Source of the DNA: Desulfobulbus propionicus
Lineage (GTDB): Bacteria > Desulfobacterota > Dissulfuribacteria > Dissulfuribacterales > DYOW01
Assembly (NCBI GenBank): GCA_020720325.1
Contig: DYOW01000003.1
Location: 3,522 to 57,463, forward strand
Direction: 5' to 3'
DNA length: 53,942 bases
Part shown: in pieces, positions 3,835-53,942 of the stretch
Position numbering within the stretch: the stretch's first letter is position 1
Layout of the letters: each line of letters opens with the position of its first letter
Notes under the pieces: generated by a model
Database searches by the model: none
The model's input: only the letters and a program-made list of their open reading frames with translations
What the model was told of the DNA's origin: nothing
Made by a program: the position numbers and the translations under genes

Positions 3835-3977
3835 CCTGAGTTTTTTTTGTAAACTATAACTTTAAACCATAATAAATAAAAGTAAACATTGAAGGAAAAA
3901 AATTATTTTTATTGTTTCTGGTATCTTGTTCTTGCAACATGGGACAGAACAAAGTCCTGTCCCTGCAAATTTTATTA

Positions 3978-5561: not shown

Positions 5562-5611
5562 TTTTTTCTCCTCTGAATAATAATTAACATAAATTATATA
5601 TTTATTTTTTA

Positions 5612-14797: not shown

Positions 14798-16072
14798 ATG
14801 AAAAAAAGAAATTCTATTTTTGGTGAAAACTGGTTTCTCGGAGTTTTCCTTGCCGTTCTTTTACATATATTAGTGGCGCTTCTTGCCCTTTTTTCATCCA
14901 AGTTATGGAAAAATCCTTTTCATATTGCTGCTCCATACAATGTGAGAATTGTTTCTCCCAATGAACTGTCAAGAATCACAGGAGAAATGGGAGAAAAAGC
15001 AAAAACCCCGCCGGAAGCAACAAAAGAACACTCTAAGGAACACGAAAAAACCCAGGAAAAACCTTCTGATGATGCGCAGAGAATTGAAGAGTTAAAAAAG
15101 AAAGAAGAGGCTAAGAAAGCTGAGGAGCAAAAGAAGATAGAAGAGGCCAAAAAGGCCGAAGAAAATAAAAAAATCGAGGAAGCAAAAAAAGCTGAGGAAC
15201 AAAAGAAAATAGAGGAAACCAGGAAAGCCGAAGAAGCCAAGAAGGTCGAGGAACAAAAAAAGATAGAAGAGGCTAAGAAAACCGAGGAAGCAAAGATTGC
15301 CCTTGAGAGGAAAAAGGAAGAAGAGCGTAAAAAAGCTGAGGAGCAAAAGAAGATAGAAGAGGCCAAAAAGGCTGAAGAACAAAAGAAAATAGAGGAAGCC
15401 AAAAAGGCTGAGCTTGCTAAAAAAGCAGAGGAACAAAAAAAGATAGAAGAGGCTAAAAAGGCTGATGAATTAAAGAAAAAAGAAGAAGCAAAAAAGGCTG
15501 AGGAAGCTAAGAAAGCCGAGGAGGCAAGAAAAGCGGAAGAGGCCAAAAAGGCTGAGCTTGCTAAAAAAGCAGAGGAAGATGCTTTAAATAAAAAACTTCA
15601 GGCAATAAAAAACAAGGCAGGCGAAAAAGAAGCCCAGGAAAATCTTTCTAAAAAACTTGCTAACCTCAAGGAAAAACACGGAGAAAGTACTAACGGACAT
15701 GAGAAAGCCGCTGGAGATACAAAAGAAAAATCAAGGGGAGCAGGCCCAATAGGTCAGGATCTATTTTGCAAATTTTATAATTGCAATGAGCTCATAGATA
15801 AAATACAATCAAACTGGAGACCGCCGGAACAACTGATTGACCAAAAAGGACTCCATTGTCTGCTTGTAATAAAAATTAAAGATGACGGCGCTGTGATAGG
15901 CGTGGATGTTGAGAAAAAATCCGGCAACAGTATCTTTGATTTATCTGCTGTAAAGGCTGTAAAATCATCAAGTCCCCTCCCCCCTGTCACAAAGGACTTA
16001 AAGACACTTATGAAAGACACCGGCTATCTGGAAATTGGTTTAAATTTTAAACCCGGAGATGTTGGTTTTTAA
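14798..16072 (+). CDS. tolA: TolA-like protein (N-terminal TM anchor, long Glu/Lys/Ala helical repeat, TonB/TolA-type C-terminal domain)
   Basis: 424-aa ORF with a single N-terminal TM. About 165 aa consist of EEAKKAEEQKKI-type repeats, followed by a globular C-terminus. The gene sits between tolR and tolB. Confidence 0.8.
   Translation: MKKRNSIFGENWFLGVFLAVLLHILVALLALFSSKLWKNPFHIAAPYNVRIVSPNELSRITGEMGEKAKTPPEATKEHSKEHEKTQEKPSDDAQRIEELKKKEEAKKAEEQKKIEEAKKAEENKKIEEAKKAEEQKKIEETRKAEEAKKVEEQKKIEEAKKTEEAKIALERKKEEERKKAEEQKKIEEAKKAEEQKKIEEAKKAELAKKAEEQKKIEEAKKADELKKKEEAKKAEEAKKAEEARKAEEAKKAELAKKAEEDALNKKLQAIKNKAGEKEAQENLSKKLANLKEKHGESTNGHEKAAGDTKEKSRGAGPIGQDLFCKFYNCNELIDKIQSNWRPPEQLIDQKGLHCLLVIKIKDDGAVIGVDVEKKSGNSIFDLSAVKAVKSSSPLPPVTKDLKTLMKDTGYLEIGLNFKPGDVGF
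15080..15580 (+). repeat. In-frame degenerate tandem repeat inside tolA (AAGAAGATAGAAGAGGCCAAAAAGGCTGA-type units)
   Basis: Repeated nucleotide units encode (K)IEEAKKAEEQKK many times. They also create long spurious antisense ORFs. Confidence 0.85.
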
Positions 16073-16121
16073 ATAAATTTGTTTTATATTATAAACCTGA
16101 TTAAAACGAGGATAGAAAAAA

Positions 16122-17402
16122 ATGAAAAAAATCTATATAGTTTTTGTGTTGTTATTGTTTTTAATTTTATGCGGACAAAACGCATATGCCGCAAGGGTAT
16201 ATCTTGATATACTTGGTCCCGGTGGCAAACAATTTCCAATTGCTGTTCCAAATCTTGATGTCACCCCTCAAGGCTCACAGTATGCTGACGTTGGCGCTCA
16301 AATATCCGATGTGCTTTCAAATGACCTTACATTTCACGGATTTTTTTCAGTTTTGGAAAAATCGCAATACGGAGGCGCTCAGGATGCCTTATGGAATAAG
16401 TTCAGGCTGGATTATCTTGTGAAGGGTTCTGTCTTTGCGAGCGGCAACACAATAGTGGTTGAACTAAAACTACTTGAAATGCCGGGCGAAATCCTCATTG
16501 AAGGCAGAAGATACACTGCTAACATGAATGAATACAGAAAAATCGCGCACCGTTTCTGCGATGTTATTGTCAAGGCAATTACCGGAGAACATGGCGTAAG
16601 CCTTTCAAAAATCGCCTTTGTTGCGCCAAACGGAAAAAACAGGGATTTTTTCACTGCTGATTTTGACGGATATGCCCCCGCATTGGAATCTTCCGAAAAA
16701 TCATTTGTAATATCACCACGCTATTCACCTAACGGAAAATATATAGCATATACTTCTTACAGAACTGGAAATTCATGTCTTTATATCAAAGACCTTGAAA
16801 GAAATATTGTAAAAAAAGTAAGCGCTCATCCCGGATTAAATGTTTCCCCTGCATGGCATCCTGACAGTAATACCCTTATTGTAAGCCTTAGTAAGGACGG
16901 CAATCCGGATTTATATCTTATTAATACTGATGGTCATATAATTTCAAAGCTTACATCTGGCCCTGGCGCCAATATTTCCCCGACTTTTTCTCCTGACGGT
17001 TCAAGGATTGCCTTTGTCTCAGACAGGACAGGCTCTCCACAGATTTATATTATGGATTTAAGTTCAAAAAGCGTTAAACGACTGACATTTTCAGGAGATT
17101 ATAATACTGACCCGCAGTGGTCGCCAAAAGGTGATAAAATAGCATATGTAAGTAGGGCAGGAGGTTTTCAGATTTACACAATATCTCCTGAAGGAACAGG
17201 CGCCGCAAGGTTAACAGATCAGGGAAACAATGAGAACCCCTCATGGTCTCCTGACTCAAGACAACTGCTTTTTACCTCAACAAGACTTGGCGGTAAAAGT
17301 CTCTTTGTTATGCTTGCTAACGGAGACTATCAAAGAGTAATTGTAAAAAATATCGGGAAAATTTCCACTCCCTTCTGGGGACCTAATTTTCTTAACAACT
17401 AA
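16122..17402 (+). CDS. tolB: Tol-Pal system beta-propeller protein TolB
   Basis: 426-aa ORF with a signal peptide, a TolB N-domain and repeated SPxFSPDG/WSPDS propeller blades. Confidence 0.9.
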   Translation: MKKIYIVFVLLLFLILCGQNAYAARVYLDILGPGGKQFPIAVPNLDVTPQGSQYADVGAQISDVLSNDLTFHGFFSVLEKSQYGGAQDALWNKFRLDYLVKGSVFASGNTIVVELKLLEMPGEILIEGRRYTANMNEYRKIAHRFCDVIVKAITGEHGVSLSKIAFVAPNGKNRDFFTADFDGYAPALESSEKSFVISPRYSPNGKYIAYTSYRTGNSCLYIKDLERNIVKKVSAHPGLNVSPAWHPDSNTLIVSLSKDGNPDLYLINTDGHIISKLTSGPGANISPTFSPDGSRIAFVSDRTGSPQIYIMDLSSKSVKRLTFSGDYNTDPQWSPKGDKIAYVSRAGGFQIYTISPEGTGAARLTDQGNNENPSWSPDSRQLLFTSTRLGGKSLFVMLANGDYQRVIVKNIGKISTPFWGPNFLNN

Positions 17403-19740: not shown

Positions 19741-22695
19741 ATGAGATTATTTTTTTTTATTTTTATATTTTTATTGTTAAATTCAGGTATGGCTTATTCA
19801 ATGACAAATATTGACCTTGATGTGACGGTTAATTTAAATGATAAGGCGCTTTATGGCATAGCAAAGATTTCAAATTATGAAATTTCGCCTGAATTTAACA
19901 ACCCAGGCATTGAAATTTTACATAAAACTCTAAAAAAAGAGAATGAAAAGGATGTTATTTTTATTGAATACAAAACTGATATAGGAAACATATTGGAAAA
20001 CTCCAGGATGTTTTCAGCGGATGATTTCCTGTTTTTATATGACAACTGGTTTCCTGAGGCGGATAATTATGCGATATACAGCCTTAAAGTTTCTGTTCCG
20101 GAAGGTTTTATTCCCATTTCCGAGGCGGATGAAGTCAAAGAAAACAAAGGTAAATATGAATTTATTTTTAATCACCCAAGGGATGAAATAACGCTGATTG
20201 TTGGAAAATTTCACAAAAATTCAATTAAACACCGTGATATTGACATATCAACATATTTTTTGGAAAACGACAGGAATCTAAGCAATCTTTACCTGACAAA
20301 AACAGGGCAGTTTCTTGATAAATACCAGAAACTCCTTGGCAAATTCCCTTTCAAAAAATTTTCTGTAGTTGAAAATCCAGCGCAAACCGGCTACGGCTTT
20401 CCCACATTTACCCTGCTTGGCTCTGCTGTTTTAAGGCTGCCATTCATACCTGACACATCCCTTGGTCATGAACTGGCACATTCATGGTGGGGCAACTCAA
20501 TTTATAATGATTTCTCCAAAGGTAACTGGATTGAAGGCCTCACCACATACCTTTCCGACTATCATTATGAAAAAGAAAAAAATGCTGATACTGCCTACAG
20601 AAAAAATATTATCGTTAAATACATGAGTTATAACGACACAAATTCCACTCCATTAATGGATTTTAAGGGAAATATTGACAATAAAAACGAATCCATTGGT
20701 TATGGAAAAGGGGCTTTTCTCTTTTATACCCTTGAAAATGAAATGGGAGAAAAAAATTTTTATGATGCCCTTAAAGATTTGATAAATACATACAGTTTCA
20801 AAGAAGCAAGCTGGGATGATATAAAAGATACCTTTAATAAATATTCACAAAATAAGCTTGACACAATATTTGACCAGCGCTTAAAAAGAAATGACATACC
20901 TGATATAAATATTTCATCCAATGAACTGCATATTGATGAAAAAGGCGAATTTTTATTGAAAATTACAGTAAATCAGGGCACAAAGATACCATACAACTTA
21001 ACAGTTCCTCTTATAGTTGAAACCCTTTCGGGAAAACAGGATTTTGATATAAATATTTCCGGTGAAAAACAGGATGTGTATCTGAATGTGAATAATTTTC
21101 CCCTTAAGGTGATTATTGACCCTCAATATAAAATAATGCGAAAATTAAGTCCAAACGAATATCCCCCTGTATTTTCCAGAGTAATTGGCGCAAAATCCGG
21201 CATAATGACAATCCATAAAAGTGAGAGGGAAATTTACAGCGAAGCCATTGATTTTTTTACAAATAAAAATAAAAACTATGAAATAATTGAGATTGACGAC
21301 AACTCAGCCTTTGAATGGGAGAAATATAACACGCTTAAATCAATTATTTTTATGGGGACTGTTCCAAAACCTATTCAAAAAATAATAAAAAAACAAGACC
21401 TGAGAAATTCCGGAGTATCCATTGATATTATAAATAATATAGCCAATAATTCCATTATAACCCTCCTAAGAATTGATAAAAAAGAAGAATTTACCAAAAT
21501 CAAAAGAAAATTATTCCATTACGGCAATTATTCAAAAATTGTTTTTTCTGACGGCAAAACCATTGAAAAAGCCTTAAAAAACACCGAGGATGGCATTATC
21601 TATAATATTTATAACCCCATTATGGGCTATAACAAAGATTCCATATTAACATTTAATGATATAATTAATCAGATAGCTAATAAAAAAATAGTCTTTGTTG
21701 GTGAAGAGCATGACAAATATGCGCATCACCTCTTGCAGTTAATGGTCATTAAGGCTCTTAATAAAAAAGGCGTTAAACTGGCCGTTGGAATGGAGATGTT
21801 TCAAAAACCATTTCAAAAGGCATTGGATGATTATATTGAAAGCAAAATAAGTGAACAGGACTTTCTCTCCCAATCAGAATATCTTAAGAGATGGAGCTTT
21901 GATTATAAACTCTACAAACCAATAATAGATTACTGCAGGGCAAATAATATCAGAATTATCGCCCTTAATGCGCCAGTGGAATTAACAAAAAAAATATCCG
22001 AAAAGGGAATTGGCGCGCTTACCCCGGAAGAACAGGAAAATATTCCAAATATTGACATAACAAATAATGAGCACAAAGATTTTGTAAACTATATTTTTTC
22101 ATCCCATAACATATCTGAAAAAAAGGATTTCACCAATTTTTATATGGCCCAGCTTTTATGGGACGAGACAATGGCTGATACAGCGCATAATTTTCTTAAA
22201 AATAATCCCGTATATAAAATGGTGATACTTGCAGGAAACGGTCACATAGAAAATAGATACGGCATTCCAAACCGCCTGACTGCAAGGGGAGACTATGATA
22301 TAACAACCATAACAAATGAGTCTGTTTTGGAAATAAATCCAGAAAAAGCGGATTTTTCCATTATCATGCCCTATTTTGAACAGCCATTCTCAGCCCGGCT
22401 TGGAGTGACTCTGGAAGAAATGCCTGACGGATTATTAATAAAAGATATTGATAAAAATAGCGTTGCAATGAAATCAAATCTCCATAAAAATGACATTATT
22501 TTATTTGCGGATGATGTTAAAATATCAAATCTTTTTTCTCTTAAGGCAATACTGTCAATGAAAAAACAATCCGATACAATCAAACTTAAAATTAAAAGAA
22601 AAAAACAGGATAATCAGGAAGAATATGAAGAGCTTGAGATTATTTCAGAGCCTTTTGACAAAACATCCCGGATGCCTTTTGAACATCCCAAATGA
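19741..22695 (+). CDS. Secreted multidomain protein: M1-type zinc metallopeptidase + ChaN/Tiki-superfamily (haem-binding-uptake-like) domain + PDZ
   Basis: 984-aa ORF with a signal peptide. It has HELAHSWWGN plus WIEGLTTY (HEXXH-E zinc site), a mid region VFVGEEHDKYAHH ... GMEMF ... ILAGNGH (ChaN/Cofac_haem_bdg-like) and a C-terminal PDZ-like segment (GLLIKDIDKNSVAMKSNLHKNDIILFADD). Confidence 0.7.
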   Translation: MRLFFFIFIFLLLNSGMAYSMTNIDLDVTVNLNDKALYGIAKISNYEISPEFNNPGIEILHKTLKKENEKDVIFIEYKTDIGNILENSRMFSADDFLFLYDNWFPEADNYAIYSLKVSVPEGFIPISEADEVKENKGKYEFIFNHPRDEITLIVGKFHKNSIKHRDIDISTYFLENDRNLSNLYLTKTGQFLDKYQKLLGKFPFKKFSVVENPAQTGYGFPTFTLLGSAVLRLPFIPDTSLGHELAHSWWGNSIYNDFSKGNWIEGLTTYLSDYHYEKEKNADTAYRKNIIVKYMSYNDTNSTPLMDFKGNIDNKNESIGYGKGAFLFYTLENEMGEKNFYDALKDLINTYSFKEASWDDIKDTFNKYSQNKLDTIFDQRLKRNDIPDINISSNELHIDEKGEFLLKITVNQGTKIPYNLTVPLIVETLSGKQDFDINISGEKQDVYLNVNNFPLKVIIDPQYKIMRKLSPNEYPPVFSRVIGAKSGIMTIHKSEREIYSEAIDFFTNKNKNYEIIEIDDNSAFEWEKYNTLKSIIFMGTVPKPIQKIIKKQDLRNSGVSIDIINNIANNSIITLLRIDKKEEFTKIKRKLFHYGNYSKIVFSDGKTIEKALKNTEDGIIYNIYNPIMGYNKDSILTFNDIINQIANKKIVFVGEEHDKYAHHLLQLMVIKALNKKGVKLAVGMEMFQKPFQKALDDYIESKISEQDFLSQSEYLKRWSFDYKLYKPIIDYCRANNIRIIALNAPVELTKKISEKGIGALTPEEQENIPNIDITNNEHKDFVNYIFSSHNISEKKDFTNFYMAQLLWDETMADTAHNFLKNNPVYKMVILAGNGHIENRYGIPNRLTARGDYDITTITNESVLEINPEKADFSIIMPYFEQPFSARLGVTLEEMPDGLLIKDIDKNSVAMKSNLHKNDIILFADDVKISNLFSLKAILSMKKQSDTIKLKIKRKKQDNQEEYEELEIISEPFDKTSRMPFEHPK

Positions 22696-23753: not shown

Positions 23754-25724
23754 TCACGGCAATTTATGGGCTTTTTCCTTAAAAAGCAGTTCACCTTTAG
23801 GGTTTAATAATTTTTTTTGCAGCATATCAGGGACTAAGTCAGGATGAACAGGTTTGCTGAACAAATAACCCTGAATCTCGTCACATCCAAGATTGCTTAA
23901 TATATCAAGATGTTCCGCTGTTTCCACACCTTCTGCAACCACGGAAATATCAAGGCTCTGGGCAAGGGCAATAATTGACTTGGTTATCAGCTTGGATTCA
24001 GGGTTAAAGGATAGGTCTTTTATAAATGACCTGTCTATTTTTAATCCTGAAACCGGAAGTTTATGCAGATAACTAAGAGAAGAAAATCCAGTTCCAAAAT
24101 CATCGATATAAATTTTAATACCTTCATCACGTATTTGCTCAAAAATTTTTATTTTTTGGTTTATATCCTCAAGAAATGTTGATTCTGTAATCTCAATCTG
24201 TATTAAATTTGTTGGGATTCGGGTCTCCTGCAATAAACTCATCACCTTTTCAGGAAGTTCCTTTTTAAACTGGTCTGACGAAATATTGACTGCCACAGGA
24301 ACAACATCCAGTCCTTCCTTTCTCCAGTGATAAAGGTCAAAACAAGCAATTTTCAATACAATTTCGCCTAACTGGGAGATAAGACCCATTTTTTCTGCTA
24401 TTGGAATAAAATCCAATGGCATTATAAGTCCTTTCTCAGGATGATTCCACCTGATAAGAGCCTCAAAACCCACCAACTCATTGGTAAAAGTGTTCACCTT
24501 TGGCTGGTAGTAAAGGATAAATTCCTGTCTCTCTATTGCGATTCTTAAATTGCTTTCTATTTCAAGATGTTCCGCAATGATATTATCCATGCCGGGTTGA
24601 TAAAAATGAAACCCGTTCCCGCTGTTTTTTTTCACCTCATACATTGCAATTTCAGCCCTTTTTAACAGAAGCTCCGCATTTTGACCGTCAGAGGGATAGA
24701 TGCTTATTCCAGCGCTTAAAGTAAAGATATAATATTGTCCCAAAATATCAAATTTCTTACTGGAAAATGATTTTTGTATTAATCGCACAAAATCTGCGAT
24801 ATAGTCTATATTTGAAATATTTTCAAAAAGAATAATAAATTCATCCCCTCCAAAACGGTAAAGGGAAATATTTGTCTTTACAACATATTCTTTTTGAAAT
24901 TTTGTGATTATTTCTATAAAATAAGCGGCTATTTTTTGGAGAGTGATATCGCCGATTTCGTTTCCGAGGGTATCATTAATCTTTTTGAAATTATCAACAT
25001 CATTTAAAATTATCACCGGATTGCTATTTTTGTGATAAAGATAATCAAATATCCTGTTAAGATGCGCAAGAAATGCCGTTCTGTTGGGAAGTCCTGTTAA
25101 TTTATCATAAACAGCATTATGTTCCATTTCTCTTGTCTTATTTTCCAGTAAATTTTCGAGAAATTCATAATTCTTTTCAAGAAATTTGTATAATTCAACA
25201 CCTTCAATGGCATTTGATGTAAGATGTATCAAAATAGACATATAAAGAGATAAATGATTTTCCGGCTTGACTTCATTTTCAAGGATACCCACAAAAATTC
25301 CCCTCACCCTTCTCTGGGTTGTCATGGAATGAAGCATAACCGGAAGACCTGATTTGCTTTTGGAGGGAAAAATCGGTCTGTTCTGTCTTAATGCAAAGGC
25401 GCATTCACCCCTGTTTATCTGATAGTCAAACTCATCCTGAATTAATTCGTTAAATGAGGCAGGCTCACATAAAAATTGATAAAGGTCAGCGTCATGTTCG
25501 TTTACAAGATAAAATCCCATTGCCCTGAAATTAATAAATTTCTCTATATAACTCTTTGTTTTGAGAAAAATTTTCTTTAAATCCCTGTGTTCATTGGCAG
25601 TTCCGTAAATATCGCCCATTTCAACAAGGCTCTCAAATGCCTCAAAAAACCAGCCGTTAAGCATTTCAAGGTAATTTAGCCTTTGTCTGAAAAATTCTAT
25701 TTCAGTAAAAATTTCAGTCTGCAT
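23754..25724 (-). CDS. Sensor-domain / GGDEF / EAL protein, both catalytic motifs intact
   Basis: 656-aa ORF. Motifs: RFGGDEF; EALIRW, DDFGTGFSS, AEGVE, QGYLF. The N-terminal ~190 aa look GAF-like and are not confidently assigned. Confidence 0.85.
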   Translation of the reverse strand: MQTEIFTEIEFFRQRLNYLEMLNGWFFEAFESLVEMGDIYGTANEHRDLKKIFLKTKSYIEKFINFRAMGFYLVNEHDADLYQFLCEPASFNELIQDEFDYQINRGECAFALRQNRPIFPSKSKSGLPVMLHSMTTQRRVRGIFVGILENEVKPENHLSLYMSILIHLTSNAIEGVELYKFLEKNYEFLENLLENKTREMEHNAVYDKLTGLPNRTAFLAHLNRIFDYLYHKNSNPVIILNDVDNFKKINDTLGNEIGDITLQKIAAYFIEIITKFQKEYVVKTNISLYRFGGDEFIILFENISNIDYIADFVRLIQKSFSSKKFDILGQYYIFTLSAGISIYPSDGQNAELLLKRAEIAMYEVKKNSGNGFHFYQPGMDNIIAEHLEIESNLRIAIERQEFILYYQPKVNTFTNELVGFEALIRWNHPEKGLIMPLDFIPIAEKMGLISQLGEIVLKIACFDLYHWRKEGLDVVPVAVNISSDQFKKELPEKVMSLLQETRIPTNLIQIEITESTFLEDINQKIKIFEQIRDEGIKIYIDDFGTGFSSLSYLHKLPVSGLKIDRSFIKDLSFNPESKLITKSIIALAQSLDISVVAEGVETAEHLDILSNLGCDEIQGYLFSKPVHPDLVPDMLQKKLLNPKGELLFKEKAHKLP

Positions 25725-43981: not shown

Positions 43982-44821
43982 TTGGAACCTGATATTTTTA
44001 TTGAATTAATTTCTAAAAAAAGAGACGACACCTATATAAATTATCTTCTCACAAAGGCTGTGATGGCGGCAAATGAAGCAGGAGAAATATTAAAATCCTA
44101 TTATGACAAACCGTTACATATTAATTTTAAGGGTGATATTGATATTGTAACTGAGGCGGATATTAAATCCCAGGAAACAATTCAGAAAATTTTAAATAAT
44201 GATGAATATGATATAAAGTTTATCGGAGAAGAAAATTGTATTGAAAGTTGGGAAATACCGGATGAACCGTGCTGGATTGTTGACCCACTGGACGGAACAA
44301 CAAATTTTGCCCATAGTTTTCCCTGGTTTGCAGTATCTATTGCATATTATGACGGAAAGGAACTGCAAATAGGGATTGTCCACGCACCCCTTTTTGATGA
44401 AACATTTGTTGCTGTAAAAAACGCCGGGACATACCTTAACTCCACAACCATTGTGACTTCTTCAGCATCCCAGTTAAAAAGCTCTCTGCTTGCCACAGGC
44501 TTTCCATATGATGTCCAAAAAAACCCCCAAAAAGTTATGGCTGCATTTAATGATGTTATCTTAAAGGCAAGGGGAATAAGAAGGGCAGGAGCTGCTGCCC
44601 TTGACCTTGCATATGTTGCGGCGGGAAGGCTTGACGGATTCTGGGAAATAAAACTAAAACCATGGGATACTGCCGCTGGAGTTTTGCTTGTAAAGGAGGC
44701 AGGAGGCATTATCTCTGATTTTGGCGGCGCCCCTTTTAATTTTAAGAAAAACTCCATTTTGGCGGCAAATAAAAATATTCACGGACAACTTAAAGATATT
44801 CTTTGTAATTATAATGAATAA
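43982..44821 (+). CDS. Inositol monophosphatase family protein (SuhB-like)
   Basis: 279-aa ORF with a TTG start and AAGGAGAAAAAA upstream. Motifs: VTEADIKS, WIVDPLDGTTNF, WDTAAG. Confidence 0.85.
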   Translation: MEPDIFIELISKKRDDTYINYLLTKAVMAANEAGEILKSYYDKPLHINFKGDIDIVTEADIKSQETIQKILNNDEYDIKFIGEENCIESWEIPDEPCWIVDPLDGTTNFAHSFPWFAVSIAYYDGKELQIGIVHAPLFDETFVAVKNAGTYLNSTTIVTSSASQLKSSLLATGFPYDVQKNPQKVMAAFNDVILKARGIRRAGAAALDLAYVAAGRLDGFWEIKLKPWDTAAGVLLVKEAGGIISDFGGAPFNFKKNSILAANKNIHGQLKDILCNYNE

Positions 44822-45369: not shown

Positions 45370-46920
45370 ATGAAGAGAAGGAATTTTCTATCACTTTTTC
45401 TGTTTTTATTTTTATTTTTGTCCACATCCATCACTAATGCCCTTAATATTGATAGTGGAGCAGCAAAAAACTATGTGTTTCTTTTTATAGGTGACGGCAT
45501 GTCTGTTGTTCAGGTTAATGCATCTGAATACTACTTAACATCATTATATAATAAATGTGCCCTTGGTGAGGCAAACAAAAACAACTGCTATCCATTTCCT
45601 GGAGATAAATACGACACATCCGCTCAAGCAAAACTTCCAAGGATTTCCTTCACACAATATCCATATACGGGTATCGCCACAACCTACGGAACAAACTCTT
45701 TTACCCCTGACTCAGCAGACACAGGAACTGCCCTTGCCACAGGTAAAAAAACCAAATCCGGCACAGTTTCAATGGATCCAACAGGCAAAACAATCTATAC
45801 AACCATCGCCGAGGTATTAAAGTCAAAAGGAATGAATGTTGGCATAGTTTCAAGCGTTTCCATTGACCATGCCACCCCAGCTGTTTTTTATTCACACAGC
45901 CCCAGCAGAAACAATTATTATGACATAGCAAAACAGATTCCAACAAGTGGCTTTGACTACTTTGCAGGCGGCGGCTTTGTACAGCCCACAGGTTCCAAAA
46001 AAGATCAAAAAAATATTGTGGATATTATTAAAGAAAGCGGCATGAAATATGTCAACTCAAGGGCAGATTTCGAGACTCTTCCAAATGCCCCCGGACAAAG
46101 GGTTGTTGCGACAAACCCTTCCGCAGGTCTTGATTCTTCCCAGGCTCTTTACTATGACCTTGACAGAAGGTATGTCAACAAGCCAAATGACCACATAACC
46201 CTTGCTGAATACACAAAAAAAGGCATTGACCTGCTCTATGATCCAAAGGGAAGCAATGGCTTTTTTATGATGGTTGAAAGCGGAAAGATTGACTGGGCAA
46301 ATCATGCAAATGATGCGGCATCTTCTATTGCCGATGTAATTGCCTTTGATGAAGCAATAAAGACAGCTTATGATTTCTATAAACAACATCCCAATGAAAC
46401 CATAATTATTGTCACCGGCGACCATGAGTGCGGCGGCATGACAATAGGTTTTGCCGGAACAAAATATAGCACAAATTTTGCAAACCTTTCCAGCCAGAAA
46501 ATGTCCTACATTGAATTTGGCAAAATTGTAAGCTCCTATAAAAATGCAAGCCCCCCGGCAAATATTGCGGATGACATGAAACGCATGATATCAGACACAT
46601 TTGGACTTGATTACAGCAAGCTTACAGATTTCCAGAAAGCTCAGCTTGAAGACGCTTATGACAGAAGCATGGCAGGAAAAGCAATTGTTGGTTCAGAGCA
46701 GGATTACCTTCTCTATGGAGGTTATGATGCCTTAACCGTTACATGCACACATATATTAAATGAAATTTCAGGCATTGCATGGACATCATACTCTCACACA
46801 GGAGTTCCGGTTCCTGTTTATGCTGTTGGAAAGGAATCAAACAAATTTACCGGTCAGATGGATAATACTGATATTCCTAAAAAACTTTCCGAAATCACAG
46901 GCTACAGCTTGCCTAAATAA
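45370..46920 (+). CDS. Alkaline phosphatase (PhoA family), secreted
   Basis: 516-aa ORF with a signal peptide, the active-site region PDSADTGTALATGKKT and metal-ligand regions (DHATPA, DWANHAND, TGDHECGG, SHTG). Confidence 0.85.
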   Translation: MKRRNFLSLFLFLFLFLSTSITNALNIDSGAAKNYVFLFIGDGMSVVQVNASEYYLTSLYNKCALGEANKNNCYPFPGDKYDTSAQAKLPRISFTQYPYTGIATTYGTNSFTPDSADTGTALATGKKTKSGTVSMDPTGKTIYTTIAEVLKSKGMNVGIVSSVSIDHATPAVFYSHSPSRNNYYDIAKQIPTSGFDYFAGGGFVQPTGSKKDQKNIVDIIKESGMKYVNSRADFETLPNAPGQRVVATNPSAGLDSSQALYYDLDRRYVNKPNDHITLAEYTKKGIDLLYDPKGSNGFFMMVESGKIDWANHANDAASSIADVIAFDEAIKTAYDFYKQHPNETIIIVTGDHECGGMTIGFAGTKYSTNFANLSSQKMSYIEFGKIVSSYKNASPPANIADDMKRMISDTFGLDYSKLTDFQKAQLEDAYDRSMAGKAIVGSEQDYLLYGGYDALTVTCTHILNEISGIAWTSYSHTGVPVPVYAVGKESNKFTGQMDNTDIPKKLSEITGYSLPK

Positions 46921-47007: not shown

Positions 47008-48132
47008 ATGAACAAAACTCATCAAAAAAAAGCCGACATTATTTTTGTCATTGTCCTTATCTGTTTTTCTTTGTTTTTATTCTATCTTCCCACTGGATTT
47101 GAAAAAAACCTCATTAACACAGAAAAGGCAAAGGCAAGGATTATCTCTGTTGATAATTCCATAATTGAAAACACAACCATAATTAAACTTGGCTCACAAA
47201 TATTGGCTGTGGAGATTATACAGGGCAAATACAAAGACAAAAAAATAGAAATTTTTAACCAGCTCACAGGCAAGATGGATTTTGACGAAATTTACAATGC
47301 GGGACAGGAAATAATGGTGGAGTTTTCTTTAGATGAAAATGAGAATATTATAAGCGGAGTCGCAAGGGGAACTTACAGGCTTGAAAACATCTTTTTATTA
47401 TTTTTGCTTTTTTCAGGGCTTCTTTTTATTGCCGCGGGCTGGACAGGCTTTAAGGCGCTTTTGTCCTTTGTGTTCACAGCTCTTTTATTGTGGAAGGTAA
47501 TGGTTCCACTTTTTTTAAAAGGTTATGACCCTGTATGGATTGCAATGGGAATAATAACAGGTCTTGTTTTAACAATCAGTTTTCTTATAGGAGGATTCAC
47601 AAGGCTTGGCATTATCACTGCCCTTGGTTCAATCACCGGGCTTTTGCTCACCTGCATTCTTGCTCAGATATTTATCCAGCCCTTCAGGATTCACGGCGCA
47701 GTGCTGCCTTTTTCAGAAAATCTTCTTTTTTCTGGGTTTCAGGTTAATCTTTCAAAAGTATTTATAGCAAGCATTTTTATTGCGTCAGCAGGAGCTGTGC
47801 TTGACCTTGCCATGGATGTGGCCGCGGCGATGAATGAAATAAAAGAGAAAAAACCCAATATTTCCATGATGGAGCTTATAAAATCAGGCTTTAGTGTGGG
47901 AAAGGCTGTTCTTGGAACAATGACCACAACGCTTTTATTTGCATATTCAGGCGGTTATATCACAATGCTGATGTTTTTCATGGGTTCAGGCATTCCCTGG
48001 CAAAATATTGTGAATCTGCACCTGATTTCAGCAGAGATATTAAATACCCTTGTGGGAAGCTTTGGACTGGTCACAGTCGCTCCGTTTACAGCCATTGCAG
48101 GGGGAATTATTTATTCATGGAAAAATGTCTAA
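47008..48132 (+). CDS. YibE/F-family integral membrane protein
   Basis: 374-aa ORF with an N-terminal TM plus an extracytoplasmic beta-rich segment, then ~7 TM segments. It resembles YibE/F-like proteins by eye. Confidence 0.5.
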   Translation: MNKTHQKKADIIFVIVLICFSLFLFYLPTGFEKNLINTEKAKARIISVDNSIIENTTIIKLGSQILAVEIIQGKYKDKKIEIFNQLTGKMDFDEIYNAGQEIMVEFSLDENENIISGVARGTYRLENIFLLFLLFSGLLFIAAGWTGFKALLSFVFTALLLWKVMVPLFLKGYDPVWIAMGIITGLVLTISFLIGGFTRLGIITALGSITGLLLTCILAQIFIQPFRIHGAVLPFSENLLFSGFQVNLSKVFIASIFIASAGAVLDLAMDVAAAMNEIKEKKPNISMMELIKSGFSVGKAVLGTMTTTLLFAYSGGYITMLMFFMGSGIPWQNIVNLHLISAEILNTLVGSFGLVTVAPFTAIAGGIIYSWKNV

Positions 48133-49286: not shown

Positions 49287-49568
49287 TTAGTTCCCGCAAG
49301 CCCTGATGAGCGTCCATATTCCTATGGCTATAAATCCAAATCCGGCAAGATAATGCAGATGTTTTTCACAAACATATTGCGAAATAATGCCACCTGCAAT
49401 AACTCCAATTGCGGAAGTAAAAATTAAAGCCAGGAATGAAGCTAAAAATATCATAAATTTACTGATATTTTTGTCTGCGGCAAAAAGCATTGTGGCAAGC
49501 TGAGTCTTGTCTCCAAGCTCAGCAATAAAAACAGTTGCAAAAACAGCAAAAAAAAATTTGTTATCCAT
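49287..49568 (-). CDS. UPF0016 (GDT1/TMEM165/MneA-like) family membrane protein, single-domain form
   Basis: 93-aa ORF with three hydrophobic segments and the family signature ELGDKTQLAT in the first one. Confidence 0.75.
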   Translation of the reverse strand: MDNKFFFAVFATVFIAELGDKTQLATMLFAADKNISKFMIFLASFLALIFTSAIGVIAGGIISQYVCEKHLHYLAGFGFIAIGIWTLIRACGN

Positions 49569-49629: not shown

Positions 49630-49767
49630 TTAGGGCTCATTTGAACCGCATGAGCCGCAGCTCCCGCCGCAACCGCCGCAGCCCTTTATAAAGGTGCGGA
49701 AAAGAAAATAAATTGCCCCTCCAAGAATTAAACTCATTAATATGATATCAAAAATACCAATGTCCAT
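49630..49767 (-). CDS. 45-aa Cys-rich single-TM peptide (resembles the FeoB-associated Cys-rich membrane protein family)
   Basis: Not in the ORF track because it is under 60 aa. Hand translation gives MDIGIFDIILMSLILGGAIYFLFRTFIKGCGGCGGSCGSCGSNEP*. A strong SD, AAGGAGGAAAA, lies 7 nt upstream, and the ORF starts 26 nt after the ATPase stop. Confidence 0.7.
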   Translation of the reverse strand: MDIGIFDIILMSLILGGAIYFLFRTFIKGCGGCGGSCGSCGSNEP

Positions 49768-49793: not shown

Positions 49794-51905
49794 TTATTTT
49801 TTTAATGGCAGAAACGAATTTAAAAGTGTTGATAATGTAAGGATATTATGCAAAAAAGCAGCGGATAGAGGTCCTATAAATCCGGTTGAGGCAGAAAGCA
49901 ATATTAAGGAGTTTAACCCGGTTGAGATATTAAAGTTTTTGTTTATTATATCCATGGTGTCAACGGCTATTTCTTTGGCGGTGACAACAGGATATATTTC
50001 ATTTTTTATCAAGACAATATCCGCCACATCTTTAGCCATATCAGATGCGTTATAAACAGCGATGCTCACATCAGCGATGGAAAGCGCGGGAGCGTCATTT
50101 ATTCCGTCCCCGCAAAAAGCGATGATATTACATTCTTCTCTCTTTAATTCTTCTATTATTCTGGATTTATCTTCAGGAAGCAGTTTATAATAAACCTCAT
50201 CAAGCCCTATCTCTTCTGAAACAGCCATAGCCTTGTTTTTCTCATCGCCTGTAAGCATAATGACCTTGACAGCGCCCGATTTTTTCAATGCGATTATGGT
50301 ATCTTTGGCATCATGTCTTAATTTTTCCTTTAATGCTATAATGCCTATTGGCTCATAGTCCATAGTCATATAAAGAAGGGTTTTTCCTTCCAAAATAAAG
50401 GATTTTATTTTATTGTCATATTCATCAAAGGAAATATCCTCGTCTTCCTCAATAAAGTGATTGCTTCCCACCAGAACCTGTTTTTCATACACATTAGCCT
50501 TTAGCCCGTGTGCAATAATATATTCAACATCTGAATGTTTTATGTGCTTTAATTCCTTTTGCCTTGCATGTCTTACAATAGCCTGACCCACAGGATGATT
50601 ATAGTGTTCCTCAAGCGAGGCTGCCATAGCAAGAATATCATTTTCATTATAATCCTGATGAAAAGAGATTAAGTCCGTTATTTCCATGTGTTCTGATGTT
50701 AATGTGCCTGTCTTGTCGAAAACAAAAACATTGGCTCTGGAAAGCTTTTCAAATGCATTTCCGCCCTTTATGATTACTCCTTCAGTTGTCGCTTTATACA
50801 TTGAAGACTTAAAGGCAACAGATGGAGAAAGCTTTATGGCGCAGGCATAATCAACAAGTAAAACAGAAGCTGTTCTTTTTATGTCCCTTGTTAAAATATA
50901 GACTATAGAGGCAATAATCAATGTTATAAAAACACTCCTGTCTCCAAGTTTATCCGAATATCTCTGAATATTGCTTTTTGATGCAAGAGATTTTAATATA
51001 TATGAGGATATTCTTGCTGTTATGGTTTCTATTCCTATTTTTTCAGCCCTTATTTTAATAGCTCCTTCCCTTACTGTTGAGCCGGACAATGCATAGTCAT
51101 TTATTTCTTTTTTTATTGGTATTCCCTCTCCTGTAAGGGAAGACTCGTCAACAAGCGCTCCTCCTGAAATAACTGTTCCGTCTATTGGAATTATATTGCC
51201 TGCGTTGACAGACACTATATCATTAATATCTATATCATTTATATTTATCTCTATAAGATTATTATCTCTTTCAACCCAGATTTTTTCTATTGATGGATTT
51301 AATAATTTTGTTATTGCTTTATCCGCCTGATTAGTGGTGAAATATTCAAGATATTCTCCTGTTTCTATGAGAAGATATGTCAGGTTTGCCGCAAGATAAT
51401 TTTTTCTTAAAAGAGATATAAGCACAGCCAATGCGGATAAAACATCCGCTTTAATGCCTTCAAGAAATAATTTTTTTATTCCTCTTAGCAAAAGCGGCGA
51501 CACTGATATAAAGGTCAGGATATTTTTCAATGTCTGGGGCATTATAGGCAAAAACAATAATAAAACTATGCTTCTTGATATGTGAAAAAGGTCTTTTTGT
51601 TCAATTTCTCCTGGATATACAAAGCGCTCGGTATTTTCATCACTAAAATAATTTATAATTCCGTCAATTATTTTTTCCCTTGTTTCAATATTATTATCAT
51701 AATTAACAATAACGGAATTAGCCAGAAGATTTATTCTGGTTGCGGTCACGCCCTGTATTTTTTCAAAAAAAGCAATAATTTTTATGCTGCTTATTGAATT
51801 TAAATTTACATTAAAAGCCTTAAAGCGTATTCTTTTAGGGATTTCATGCGCTATATAAATATTGCTTTTTTTCAGTTTCAGGTTTTGATTTATTATGTTA
51901 TTCAT
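49794..51905 (-). CDS. P1B-type (heavy-metal) P-type ATPase with a non-canonical transmembrane metal site (YAC in place of CPC) and a Cys-less HMA-like N-terminus; FezB/P1B-6-like candidate
   Basis: 703-aa ORF. Motifs: TGE (SLTGEG), DKTGTLT, the HP dipeptide (YNHPVGQAIV) diagnostic of P1B pumps, MLTGD, GDGINDAPAL. The TM helix before DKTGT reads LLVDYACAIKLSPS, with no CPx/SPC/TPC. Confidence 0.8.
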   Translation of the reverse strand: MNNIINQNLKLKKSNIYIAHEIPKRIRFKAFNVNLNSISSIKIIAFFEKIQGVTATRINLLANSVIVNYDNNIETREKIIDGIINYFSDENTERFVYPGEIEQKDLFHISRSIVLLLFLPIMPQTLKNILTFISVSPLLLRGIKKLFLEGIKADVLSALAVLISLLRKNYLAANLTYLLIETGEYLEYFTTNQADKAITKLLNPSIEKIWVERDNNLIEININDIDINDIVSVNAGNIIPIDGTVISGGALVDESSLTGEGIPIKKEINDYALSGSTVREGAIKIRAEKIGIETITARISSYILKSLASKSNIQRYSDKLGDRSVFITLIIASIVYILTRDIKRTASVLLVDYACAIKLSPSVAFKSSMYKATTEGVIIKGGNAFEKLSRANVFVFDKTGTLTSEHMEITDLISFHQDYNENDILAMAASLEEHYNHPVGQAIVRHARQKELKHIKHSDVEYIIAHGLKANVYEKQVLVGSNHFIEEDEDISFDEYDNKIKSFILEGKTLLYMTMDYEPIGIIALKEKLRHDAKDTIIALKKSGAVKVIMLTGDEKNKAMAVSEEIGLDEVYYKLLPEDKSRIIEELKREECNIIAFCGDGINDAPALSIADVSIAVYNASDMAKDVADIVLIKNEIYPVVTAKEIAVDTMDIINKNFNISTGLNSLILLSASTGFIGPLSAAFLHNILTLSTLLNSFLPLKK

Positions 51906-51910
51906 ATTTT

Positions 51911-52001
51911 TTTGTCTGAATCACGGATTACACGGAAAGGAAAGAACTAATTTAAGCGTCTGAACTGATTTTTTAGAATTAATGAATTAACAGAACTAAT
52001 G
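51911..52001. repeat. Partial copies of a second short-repeat family (GTCTGAATCA / GGATTA-CA-type units)
   Basis: TTTGTCTGAATCACGGATTACACGG (51911-51935) shares its first 13 nt with the left arm of the 52387-52487 palindrome. A related GTCTGAACTGATTTTTTAGAATTAATGAATTAACAGAAC follows. Confidence 0.5.
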
Positions 52002-52091: not shown

Positions 52092-52277
52092 TTAGTTTTT
52101 ATGCGCAAAAGGATTATAAAGATTATAATGCCACAGTGAAAATCCTATCATGGATACCCCTGCGATAGTATGGTATTCCCAGTTTGCCCTGCCCCTGCCC
52201 ATTCCTGTCCATACGAGATAGAGCATAGAAAGCGTCATGCCTGTTTTGACAATACTGTTTATTGTTTTTTTTTCCAT
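52092..52277 (-). CDS. 61-aa two-helix membrane protein with conserved-looking His residues (DUF4405-like?)
   Basis: It is the only ORF in a 620-nt gap. It has two hydrophobic helices (MTLSMLYLVWTGMG; HTIAGVSMIGFSLWH), no SD, and is co-directional with the cluster. Confidence 0.5.
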   Translation of the reverse strand: MEKKTINSIVKTGMTLSMLYLVWTGMGRGRANWEYHTIAGVSMIGFSLWHYNLYNPFAHKN

Positions 52278-52386: not shown

Positions 52387-52487
52387 TTTGTCTGAATCAG
52401 TATTTTCAGGATTAAAGGATAAACAGGATAAGCTGTTGATGGGCATCCTGTAAATCTTAAAATCCTGTGTATCCTGATTCAGACAAA
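52387..52487. repeat. 101-nt imperfect palindrome (MITE/REP-like) in the intergenic region inside the cluster
   Basis: Perfect 14-nt arms TTTGTCTGAATCAG (52387-52400) / CTGATTCAGACAAA (52474-52487). The inner arms are built of CAGGAT(T/A)-type units and are largely complementary. Confidence 0.8.
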
Positions 52488-52527: not shown

Positions 52528-52872
52528 TTATACTGATTCCTTCTCTTCCTTTTTAAGATTTATTTCCTGTTTTACATCCTCAAATTTTTCTTTAATCTCT
52601 TCAATACCTGAAACCACCCCTGTCCAGGACTGAGCCACTGCCTTTAAGATAAATTTCTGGACATTTTCATTGCTGAGAACAAGAGTCAATCCCGCTCCGA
52701 TTAATAATCCCTGCCAGAGATATCCTGAGCCAAAATCAAATCCCAAAATTCTGGGATAATTCTGCTGTGGGTATTGATAAACAGGATAATTTGACTGATA
52801 TAAATTTGATGCAGGATAATAGCCCTGATTTGCGTAATCAGGAAAGACATTAGGCTGGCGGTGACTGCTCAT
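52528..52872 (-). CDS. Small membrane protein: Q/N/P/Y-rich N-terminus, YtxH-like GxxxG helix, charged coiled C-terminus
   Basis: 114-aa ORF. The N-terminal region is QPNVFPDYANQGYYPASNLYQSNYPVYQYPQQNYP, followed by FDFGSGYLWQGLLIGAGLTLVLSNENVQK. The start overlaps the upstream stop (TAATG). It is paralogous in the helix region to 53304-53942. Confidence 0.7.
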   Translation of the reverse strand: MSSHRQPNVFPDYANQGYYPASNLYQSNYPVYQYPQQNYPRILGFDFGSGYLWQGLLIGAGLTLVLSNENVQKFILKAVAQSWTGVVSGIEEIKEKFEDVKQEINLKKEEKESV

Positions 52873-53273
52873 TAGGATTTTTCTCCTTGTTCTTCAGTAT
52901 TTTGAGGCGCTGCCTTTGGTTTTCCAATATATGACATAAGATAACCAACGCCAGTTGCTGTCGCCGCCATAAATAAAAACGGAACTACTCCCCTTGCGCC
53001 TGTCATCTGGGCAACTGATGTTCCCGCAAATGTGGCGACCCCTGCCATTCCACCTTTGACAAGGCTGTCAATGCCTGCCTGTGTCCATGTCATTTGATTT
53101 GACTGGACTTTATGGATATTATTTCCCATGCTGAGTGTGGCGCCAACAATAACGCCGAATAAACCTGTGCTTAATGCCAGTCTGCTGTTAAAATAATTTG
53201 CGGGATAGTAATTATAAGATTGTTGCGGATACTGATAGTTTTGGTTTGGAAAATTTGAATGAGACATAGACAT
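52872..53273 (-). CDS. Small two-helix membrane protein with Q/N/Y-rich N-terminus and a MamC-like helix-loop-helix core
   Basis: 133-aa ORF with AAGGAGAAAC 6 nt upstream. The N-terminal region is NFPNQNYQYPQQSYNYYPANYFN. TM1 is GLFGVIVGATLSMG, the loop is NNIHKVQSNQMTWTQAGIDSLVKGG, and TM2 is the Gly/Ala-rich MAGVATFAGTS...VVPFLFMAATATGVGYLMSYIG. Confidence 0.7.
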   Translation of the reverse strand: MSMSHSNFPNQNYQYPQQSYNYYPANYFNSRLALSTGLFGVIVGATLSMGNNIHKVQSNQMTWTQAGIDSLVKGGMAGVATFAGTSVAQMTGARGVVPFLFMAATATGVGYLMSYIGKPKAAPQNTEEQGEKS

Positions 53274-53303: not shown

Positions 53304-53942
53304 TTATTTAATTGGTTGTCCTGATGAGAATATATTTGCAAGTCCTTCTTTAACTGATTTATTTGTCAGCAAAAAAGCAATCAAAGAGCCTGCAATCAAT
53401 CCTTTCCAGAATTGTTCATGGTTAAAATCCACCGAAAAAACTGAAAAAATCTCATCTGGCTGTGCCTGACCCGCCATTATTCTGTTAACTGTTTCCATTG
53501 CCATGCCAAACCTGTTTTCCATGTGTTTTGGATGGTGATGGGGTGAATGACTGTGGCTTTGCATTGATGAATGGCTTTGCTGCTGAGGATTGTAGTAATT
53601 AGCCTGATTAGGATCAGCATATTGAGCATGTGGATTGACAAATGGATTTTGAGTCTGATATGGATTTGAAAAAGGGGGATAACCATAAGGATTCATAAAA
53701 TTTGGCGGGACAAATCCTGGAGGTCCATAAGGCTGGGCTTGAAAATTATGGGGAAGAGTCTGCTGAAAAGGAGCGCCATACATCATCTGAGCCTGCATAA
53801 GTTCCTGTCCAAACATCATCTCAGAGCTAAAAGGATTCTGCTGTGGATGCAGCTGGGGCTGGAAATGAGGATTTGTGGGTTGCGGTTGCGGCTGAAAATT
53901 AGGCTGGGGATGTGGCTGGGGATGTGGCTGGGGATGTGGCTG
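53304..53942 (-). CDS. Membrane protein with a long P/Q/H/N/Y-rich low-complexity region and a C-terminal YtxH-like GxxxG helix (5' end outside the window)
   Basis: The frame stays open to the window edge, upstream of the tracked Met at 53819. Hand translation of 53942-53820 gives QPHPQPHPQPHPQPNFQPQPQPTNPHFQPQLHPQQNPFSSE. There is a His cluster HSSMQSHSHSPHHHPKH, and the C-terminus is FWKGLIAGSLIAFLLTNKSVKEGL. Confidence 0.7.
   Translation of the reverse strand, partial: QPHPQPHPQPHPQPNFQPQPQPTNPHFQPQLHPQQNPFSSEMMFGQELMQAQMMYGAPFQQTLPHNFQAQPYGPPGFVPPNFMNPYGYPPFSNPYQTQNPFVNPHAQYADPNQANYYNPQQQSHSSMQSHSHSPHHHPKHMENRFGMAMETVNRIMAGQAQPDEIFSVFSVDFNHEQFWKGLIAGSLIAFLLTNKSVKEGLANIFSSGQPIK
53902..53942. 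repeat. 12-nt tandem repeat GGCTGGGGATGT (at least 3.4 copies, truncated by the window end), coding for (QPHP)n on the minus strand
   Basis: Identical units at 53902-53913, 53914-53925 and 53926-53937, plus a partial unit at 53938-53942. Confidence 0.9.

Follow-up and report, generated by a model that had tools for sequence, protein, structure and literature searches.

We identified a gene for a FezB-type (P1B-6) P-type ATPase, hereafter the pump, in a fez-like (ferrosome) gene cluster that occupies the last ~6 kb of a 53,942-nucleotide stretch of DNA from Desulfobulbus propionicus (Desulfobacterota; Dissulfuribacterales; NCBI GenBank assembly GCA_020720325.1, contig DYOW01000003.1, positions 3,522 to 57,463). 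We refer to this whole stretch as the window. Judged by homology and gene context, the pump probably uses ATP to drive Fe(II) into a ferrosome-like vesicle, a reading to which we assign a probability of about 0.72. Ferrosomes, lipid-bounded organelles in which anaerobes store iron, were recognised recently, and a role for them in Clostridioides difficile infection has been shown. The locus adds a FezB member from an uncultured, sulfur-cycling lineage of Desulfobacterota. The family and its unusual motif in the fourth transmembrane helix (TM4) have already been described, and the locus refines this known family and overturns nothing in current understanding.

The open reading frame of the pump is a real, intact gene and no chance pattern, because its product scores 476 bits against the NCBIfam model for heavy-metal P-type ATPases (TIGR01525, cutoff 346). 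Pfam detects E1-E2_ATPase, Hydrolase and HMA_2 domains. The catalytic motifs of P-type ATPases are intact: TGE (residues 258–260), DKTGT (397–401), MLTGD (550–554), GDGINDAP (599–606) and HP (H437–P438 in YNHPVG), the last of which an earlier note on this DNA had correctly taken as a mark of the P1B class. The protein is identical in three independent assemblies (JGI metagenome 3300000234, the NCBI metagenome-assembled genome (MAG) GCA_974336885.1 and a Logan assembly), and a fourth assembly encodes a version with 90% identity.

The earlier note had aligned the pump by hand, without gaps, and placed a Y-A-C triplet where CPC sits in other P1B pumps, with DKTGT 44 residues after it. HMMER alignments agree, setting D-Y-A-C of the pump under A-C-P-C of A. 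fulgidus CopA, G-C-P-C of ZntA and A-C-P-C of HMA4, and the count from Y353 to D397 is indeed 44. The first Cys of CPC is thus replaced by Tyr and the Pro by Ala. The segment SVLLVDYACAIKLSPSVAF of the pump reading frame holds DYACA, from D352 to A356 (coordinates verified through the translation). As to a canonical CPx site elsewhere in the helix, which the note had raised against its own alignment, the alignments to solved pumps put DYAC itself at the CPC position. The only cysteines of the whole pump are C355, C592 and C598, with none in residues 1–354.

A Cys-free N-terminus related to HMA domains had also been proposed, and it stands: there is no Cys in the first 100 residues, Pfam HMA_2 (PF19991) matches residues 14–84 (E=9e-7, 29.4 bits against a gathering score of 30), and fold matches are dominated by HMA domains. 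When modelled alone, residues 1–98 reach a predicted local distance difference test score (pLDDT) of 84 and follow the order beta-beta-alpha-beta-beta-alpha. Their fold matches are individually weak (E 3e-3 to 0.1; template modelling score (TM-score) up to 0.69) and mostly classical HMA domains, including HMA7, CopZ, domains of ATP7B and MNK, MerP and the N-termini of ZntA, CadA and PacS, with a root-mean-square deviation of 2–3.4 Å over 54–63 columns for most of them. These models support a predicted HMA-like fold without CxxC.

An AlphaFold2 model of the whole pump, built with the family alignment, has a pLDDT of 87.2 and a predicted TM-score (pTM) of 0.75. Its closest Foldseek match is CopA (4bbj, E=3e-40, TM-score 0.60–0.63, 657 columns), and ZntA (4umw) and CoaT (7qbz, E=1e-34) match the core over ~650 columns. 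The TM4 helix of the model breaks at residues 350–353 (V-D-Y) despite the lack of a Pro, and the predicted break may mimic the unwound CPC segment of other P1B pumps. Eight helices of the model lie in the membrane region (106–121, 124–149, 153–166, 170–202, 312–339, 342–374, 639–674 and 679–702), two of which, 124–149 and 170–202, are weakly hydrophobic. A six-helix topology, based on TOPCONS, has been reported for the subfamily (cited in Grant et al.).

The FezB group has been defined by D[Y/F]SCA in TM4, HNxxT in the sixth transmembrane helix (TM6) and an R-rich RxR motif near the N-terminus, where its members have no metal-binding domain of a known kind (Grant et al., bioRxiv 10.1101/2020.01.10.902569). 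A 2026 review gives the P1B-6 hallmark as SCA together with N-x18-H-N-x-(S/T) (PMC13460109). The earlier note had given an S-C-A-type motif for this group, which both sources bear out, and had lined it up with the A-C-A of the pump. That alignment is corroborated by DYACA, by H686-N687-I-L-T690, which matches HNxxT, and by R25-I-R27 in an R-rich N-terminus with neither CxxC nor a His-rich metal-binding domain, and the homologues, the tree and the fez-type neighbours described below agree with it. What had seemed an unusual pump without CPC is therefore less exceptional: the motif is real, but absence of CPC and CxxC is the P1B-6 norm.

The best 120 homologues among 5.8 billion clusters all carry a D[YFH]xC-type TM4 and an HNxxT TM6, and nearly all have an N-terminal RxR. 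Most of the best 150 representatives at 50% identity show the same P1B-6-type motifs. Eight residues are invariant in a 62-sequence alignment (R25, R27, D352, C355, N665, H686, N687 and T690), and the pump keeps all of them; N665, 20 residues ahead of H686, is the invariant Asn of the fifth transmembrane helix (TM5). Identity of the pump to Vibrio and Clostridioides-type members is 31–39%. A scan of a genome collection with the FezB alignment and generic DKTGTLT/GDGINDAP patterns gave at least 80 loci, mostly unrelated P-type ATPases; about 16 of the newly listed loci are FezB-type (L010–L012 and L014–L025 by motif, L026 by tblastn score).

In a neighbour-joining tree of 200 sequences, rooted on CPC-type relatives and without bootstrap support values, the pump nests within the D[YF]SCA clade, in a group with P0002, P0003, P0004 and P0244 (DYSCA). 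Next to it are the 90%-identical protein, a relative with 61% identity that reads DYVCS/HNIFT, a Thermodesulfovibrionales protein that reads DYACS and one with DYSCA, and it stands well apart from CPC-type (CtpC/FezH-like) and DxGTG-type relatives. By sequence, then, the pump is a FezB/P1B-6 member with a minor signature variant, and it belongs neither to the CtpC/FezH type (CPC) nor to P1B-4 (SPC/HEGxT) or P1B-1/2.

The variant concerns two positions. Among 223 P1B-6-type sequences, the TM4 Ser position holds Ser in 190, Ala in 21 (9%), Val in six, Cys in five and Gly in one. The fourth position of the TM6 motif, Leu in the pump, is Ser or Thr in 187 of the 223, which leaves 16% without either. 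Ala, Val, Cys or Gly at the TM4 Ser position occurs on several separate branches of the tree, and Ala variants are found in cultured bacteria (Amorphus, Rhodobacter capsulatus, Thioflexithrix and Rhodovulum). The position looks tolerant, and not like one that sets specificity, because the variants fall in separate branches and Ala-type relatives have FeoA/FeoB neighbours, and replacement of Ser by Ala appears to be a recurrent, tolerated variant. Sequences that lack the TM4 Ser also lack the TM6 Ser/Thr more often than expected, with an odds ratio of 5.6 (Fisher p=7e-5) among the 223 sequences and of 8.1 (p=5e-4) among 50%-identity representatives, shared ancestry being ignored in both figures. 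This association hints, as a lead, that the two hydroxyl positions are coupled in the ion site.

The genes upstream of fezB give the cluster its character. Almost every fez cluster encodes GxxxG membrane proteins (Grant et al., bioRxiv 10.1101/2020.01.10.902569). Two of the genes upstream of fezB in the window encode such proteins, of 114 and 316 residues; they are paralogues, as profile searches merge both families, and the 114-residue protein fits the description of FezA/E/G-type proteins. The 316-residue protein has an N-terminal CDCG, a long Q/P-rich region and a His-rich HSHSPHHHPKH, followed by a helix with G-LIA-G, and its full-length gene is present in L002, a contig of the same strain. 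Fez-type GxxxG genes adjoin fezB in five other lineages. Genes for homologues of the 114-residue protein directly precede fezB in the 90% relative (L004), a Thermodesulfovibrionales MAG (L005), Albibeggiatoa (L007/L008), a Magnetococcales MAG (L009), L011 and R. capsulatus (L012). Two GxxxG paralogues precede fezB in the window clade, L005, L009 and L012, and one copy was found in Albibeggiatoa and in a betaproteobacterial MAG.

The order GxxxG, MamC-like, GxxxG, 61-residue protein, fezB is kept in L005, whose FezB is 47% identical to the pump. The 61-residue protein, which has no match to a Pfam or NCBIfam family, keeps its position in L004 and L005, and a longer relative lies downstream of fezB in L009. 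The L005 cluster further includes genes for a second HMA_2 ATPase and for a small HMA_2 protein, and it is flanked by feoB on the upstream side and by a FeoA-domain gene on the downstream side; feoA also follows fezB in Albibeggiatoa L007, and the small HMA_2 protein recurs in L007 and L009. Iron-homeostasis genes beside the cluster thus comprise FeoA/FeoB in L005, FeoA in L007 and, in the window, a weak match to a FeoB-associated peptide (E=0.011). An R-rich/HMA-type partner (FezC, FezD) is found in many fez clusters, not all (Grant et al., bioRxiv 10.1101/2020.01.10.902569), and the composition seen here is variation within the documented fez diversity of two to ten genes.

Between the two GxxxG genes lies a gene for a 133-residue protein that matches the NCBIfam model for the magnetosome protein MamC (NF038051) with E=2.2e-7 and 31 bits, short of the equivalog cutoff of 100. 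Its L005 orthologue scores 40 bits (E=5e-10, profile positions 4–87 of 97), and the protein and its orthologues have precomputed matches to Pfam PF26373 (MamC). Orthologues occur only in the window clade and L005 (L004 3767–4165; L005 6746–7171). A word-index search returned two close relatives alone, a metagenome scan with the MamC-like alignment returned no relatives, and a PDB profile search gave noise only. No other mam gene lies near the 133-residue gene in the window. On its sequence, the protein is at most a distant MamC homologue and not MamC itself. The two-helix protein that sits between the GxxxG genes of R. capsulatus was considered as a further MamC-like protein and rejected, with no NCBIfam match and a BLASTP match of E=0.22 over six residues. 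A link between MamC and fez clusters is not apparent from the titles and abstracts of the literature that names both ferrosomes and MamC.

Genetic studies of other species motivate the function proposed here. In D. magneticus, deletion of fezB abolishes ferrosomes (Grant et al., bioRxiv 10.1101/2020.01.10.902569). In S. putrefaciens, deletion of the whole fez operon has the same effect, and the operon suffices for ferrosomes in E. coli (Grant et al., bioRxiv 10.1101/2020.01.10.902569). In C. difficile, ferrosomes depend on FezB and contain most of the iron of the cell as ferrous phosphate, and FezB 'may' import Fe(II). A non-standard metal, possibly Fe(II), had been suggested for the pump in the earlier note, and the suggestion fits the FezB placement and the gene context; the Fe(II) specificity attributed to P1B-6 pumps itself comes from genetics and context in those other species.

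The analysis shows that the gene is intact, where its motifs lie, to which family it belongs, that its synteny is conserved and what fold is predicted. Which metal is carried, that the pump acts in an organelle, which residues bind the metal and what the accessory proteins do we infer, and a working model can be outlined. The pump would run a Post-Albers cycle, in which ATP phosphorylates D397 and TGE (258–260) dephosphorylates it. A divalent metal, most probably Fe(II), would enter from the cytoplasm and bind at a site formed by unwound TM4 (D352-Y353-x-C355), N665 in TM5 and H686/N687/T690 in TM6. D352, C355, N665, H686, N687 and T690 are candidate ligands because they are invariant and their positions match known P1B sites. 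We take H686 and T690 to correspond to the TM6 ligands of CopA and CoaT in our own ungapped reading; the HMMER alignments end before H686. The metal would be released to the non-cytoplasmic side, here the lumen of a small membrane vesicle, and accumulate there in an iron-phosphate mineral. Putative membrane components of the vesicle are the two GxxxG paralogues, the 61-residue two-helix protein and the MamC-like protein. It is more likely that the Cys-free, Arg-bearing HMA_2 domain serves regulation or protein docking than that it binds metal, and the downstream FeoB-associated peptide, GDT1 carrier and DmeF-type cation diffusion facilitator (CDF) may be a lineage-specific metal-handling add-on.

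Several observations weigh against this assignment. The pump has Ala354 where the strict TM4 motif D[Y/F]SCA has Ser, and Leu689 at the fourth TM6 position, where the review hallmark has Ser or Thr; with both hydroxyls lost, metal coordination could be altered. The tree carries no support values, neither sequence nor fold searches found a P1B-6 structure in the PDB, and the P1B and ferrosome papers covered contain no transport biochemistry for any P1B-6 pump. No FezC/FezD-type R-rich/HMA_2 partner was found from 47 kb to the end of the window or, in L002, within 1.5 kb ahead of the cluster; the genes ahead of the cluster there are a HicAB toxin-antitoxin pair and a DUF4258 gene. The intergenic regions of the cluster contain no match to the E. 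coli 19-mer Fur box with fewer than five mismatches, but that consensus is not informative for the phylum in question. Finally, fezB stands beside genes for a DmeF-type Co/Ni CDF and a GDT1 carrier, which looks like an efflux operon.

If it is one, the ATPase, the CDF and the GDT1 carrier would export excess Fe(II), Co(II), Ni(II) or Mn(II) across the cell membrane, as PfeT and CtpC do, with no organelle involved and with the upstream small proteins either unrelated or acting as scaffolds. The fezB, 45-residue, GDT1 and CDF genes share a strand, are separated by 26, 61 and 24 nucleotides without a terminator-like site in any gap, and are probably co-transcribed. The CDF exceeds the DmeF equivalog cutoff (406 vs 250 bits), a YibE/F membrane protein gene adjoins, and the P1B-6-like CtpC is a zinc exporter of the cell membrane that works with a small scaffold protein (PMC13460109). 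However, only the closest relatives, with 90–100% identity in FezB, have the CDF, GDT1 and 45-residue genes together with fezB, whereas relatives at 40–47% identity have feoA/feoB and no efflux genes beside the cluster. The GxxxG and 61-residue genes upstream are kept with fezB across phyla, as in ferrosome-forming clusters, and CtpC-type pumps carry CPC and fall on a separate branch of the tree. We consider plain efflux unlikely.

The loss of both hallmark hydroxyls could alternatively mark a P1B-6 subtype whose site has been retuned to a metal such as Co, Ni, Mn or Zn. The co-occurrence of the two losses suggests functional coupling, and the neighbouring transporters are annotated for Co/Ni (DmeF) and divalent cations (GDT1). 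All six candidate ligands are nevertheless kept, the alignments match the Ser position to the Pro of CPC, and in a manual ungapped register the fourth TM6 position lies beside, not on, the CopA/CoaT ligands. The branch-wise scatter of the TM4 variants and the FeoA/FeoB neighbours of Ala-type relatives also speak against a shift, as does the disregard of shared ancestry in the co-occurrence statistic. A changed specificity is thus, in our estimation, distinctly improbable. Two signature positions off consensus might also be read as erosion in a decaying or non-functional paralogue, and the cluster of the 90% relative contains a second, CPC-type ATPase, which makes redundancy conceivable. The frame, however, is intact over 703 codons, the protein is unchanged among the three assemblies and 90% conserved in the fourth, the structure prediction is confident, and the catalytic and family-invariant residues are all present. 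We reject a pseudogene or inactive paralogue, and decay of any kind has next to no likelihood. A FezB-type pump that loads Fe(II) into a ferrosome-like vesicle remains the preferred reading.

A further proposal goes beyond the assignment of the gene. The window clade and its Thermodesulfovibrionales relative (DYACS/HNGTT) might represent a distinct kind of ferrosome-like cluster, with a pump that lacks both hydroxyls in the window clade (DYACA/HNILT) and a true MamC homologue in both lineages. We regard this as doubtful. If true, the sequences would be evidence that the membranes of ferrosomes and magnetosomes share or have exchanged components, and they would suggest that the TM4 Ser and the TM6 Ser/Thr form a pair that tunes the cargo of the pump or how tightly it binds. 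The MamC-like protein is a possible evolutionary link from ferrosomes to magnetosomes. At the two variant positions these pumps are natural 'mutants', which would indicate that the hydroxyls of the proposed ion site are dispensable and that the D, C, N, H, N and T residues are not. The gene order shared across two phyla defines a compact candidate set for organelle reconstitution.

Table 1. Positions in the window of the pump gene, its motifs and the other features of the cluster.
Feature	Position	Strand	Basis
fezB-like gene, ATG start, 703-aa P1B-6-type P-type ATPase	49794..51905	minus	open reading frame and translation
N-terminal Cys-free HMA_2-type domain, residues 14–88	51642..51866	minus	PF19991, alignments, domain model
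R-rich motif R25-I-R27 inside the HMA_2-type domain	codons 51825–51833	minus	R25 and R27 invariant in two family alignments
TM4 signature D352-Y353-A354-C355-A356 (CPC position)	50838..50852	minus	HMMER alignments to CopA, ZntA, HMA4
Phosphorylation motif DKTGT (D397)	50703..50717	minus	translation
TM6 signature H686-N687-I688-L689-T690 (HNxxT)	49836..49850	minus	translation and family alignment
61-aa protein, two hydrophobic helices, conserved His36 and His50, directly upstream of fezB	52092..52277	minus	
114-aa GxxxG membrane protein: Q/Y/P-rich tail, helix with G-LLI-G and LSNE, amphipathic helix SGIEEIKEKFEDVK	52528..52872	minus	
133-aa MamC-like membrane protein: Q/Y/P/N-rich N-terminus, G-VIV-G	52872..53273	minus	
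316-aa GxxxG paralogue, C-terminal 212 codons, cut at window end	53304..53942	minus	
45-aa membrane peptide of FeoB-associated type, Cys-rich tail GCGGCGGSCGSCG	49630..49767	minus	PF12669 E=0.011, below family cutoff
93-aa single-repeat GDT1/UPF0016 divalent-cation carrier, ELGDKT motif	49287..49568	minus	PF01169 E=1.7e-19
326-aa DmeF-type CDF, His-rich loop	48282..49262	minus	NF033827 406 bits vs cutoff 250; PF01545
101-nt imperfect palindrome between the 114-aa and 61-aa genes	52387..52487	none	tips are two 13-mer copies

Second ATPases occur at other fez-type loci. Directly ahead of the L004 cluster (299–2476) lies a gene for a 725-residue ATPase with RMR, an R-rich HMA_2 N-terminus and MSCPCA, which fits FezH; in L002 the HicAB pair and the DUF4258 gene take its place. 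The second ATPase in the L005 cluster (3566–5776) has 736 residues and an HMA_2 domain.

The N-termini of the 114-, 133- and 316-residue proteins are low-complexity tails rich in Q, Y, P and N, such as NQNYQYPQQSYNYYPANYF, whose composition, not sequence, is kept in the orthologues. Such tails could possibly interact with mineral or metal, or form condensates.

The exact 13-mer TGATTCAGACAAA occurs three times in the 54 kb, with all copies in the two intergenic gaps of the cluster (51911–51923, 52387–52399 and 52475–52487); the first copy lies 6–18 nucleotides ahead of the fezB ATG. The RNA fold of the 101-nucleotide palindrome has a predicted energy of -42 kcal/mol (z=-7.7). Both elements are identical in the same-strain contig and absent from the 90%-identical relative. 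A role for the 13-mer as a conserved operator was rejected on its absence from that relative, whose intergenic regions are shorter and different. The elements are probably small, strain-specific mobile insertions that resemble miniature inverted-repeat transposable elements or repetitive extragenic palindromic sequences.

Beside the cluster lie an inositol-monophosphatase-family gene (43982–44821), an alkaline phosphatase gene (45370–46920) and the YibE/F gene (47008–48132); the YibE/F and alkaline phosphatase genes are also adjacent in L004. It is pure speculation that the alkaline phosphatase neighbourhood is tied to the supply of phosphate for an iron-phosphate mineral. Elsewhere the window encodes many PAS/GGDEF/EAL and hybrid histidine-kinase signalling proteins (239–2740, 6987–10805 and 23754–25724), the Tol-Pal components TolA and TolB (14798–17402) and a fusion of ChaN-type haem-binding, peptidase M1 and PDZ domains (19741–22695). 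The closest named relatives of TolB are from Dissulfurimicrobium and Dissulfuribacterales MAGs (53–60% identity), which are anaerobes, as expected of fez carriers. By its TolB, the host lies near Dissulfuribacterales/Thermodesulfobacteriota.

Among known systems, the pump most resembles the FezB proteins of D. magneticus (DMR_28330), S. putrefaciens, R. palustris (RPA2333) and C. difficile. Like them, it has ~700 residues in the same domain order, a Cys-free HMA_2 N-terminus with RxR, D-Y-x-C-A at the CPC position and HNxxT; it keeps the invariant residues, belongs to the same clade, has GxxxG neighbours and comes from an anaerobe. Unlike them, it has Ala for Ser in TM4 and Leu for Ser/Thr in TM6. 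The cluster also differs from known fezB clusters: it has no FezC/FezD-type partner in the available sequence, and it adds a MamC-like protein and, downstream, a FeoB-associated peptide, a GDT1 carrier and a DmeF-type CDF.

CtpC of M. tuberculosis and the FezH-type ATPases share the R-rich, CxxC-less N-terminus with the pump. The motif HNx(S/T) is theirs, whereas the pump has HNxL. They keep CPC and occupy separate branches, and CtpC, which resides in the cell membrane, exports Zn (or Mn). No second ATPase of the CtpC/FezH type was found in the window or in the same-strain contig L002.

The P1B-4 pumps PfeT and CoaT (SPC and HEGxT) share the general architecture, and CoaT (7qbz) is a good fold match. 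In our manual, unverified alignment, we take their ligand set, a hydroxyl/Cys in TM4 with His-x-x-x-Thr in TM6, to be comparable with that of the pump and suited to borderline divalent metals. In contrast to the pump, P1B-4 proteins retain the Pro (SPC), carry HE in place of HN, have no R-rich HMA_2 domain and serve efflux through the cell membrane.

Magnetosome systems resemble the locus in combining a small MamC-related membrane protein, here below threshold, with a CDF in the same probable operon, and the expected product of the locus is likewise a membrane-bounded iron-mineral organelle. The CDF of the window is nevertheless a DmeF equivalog and not MamB or MamM, against whose models it scores 45 and 34 bits (cutoffs 350), and the MamC match reaches 31 bits of the 100 needed. 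Ferrosomes hold amorphous iron phosphate, whereas magnetosomes hold magnetite.

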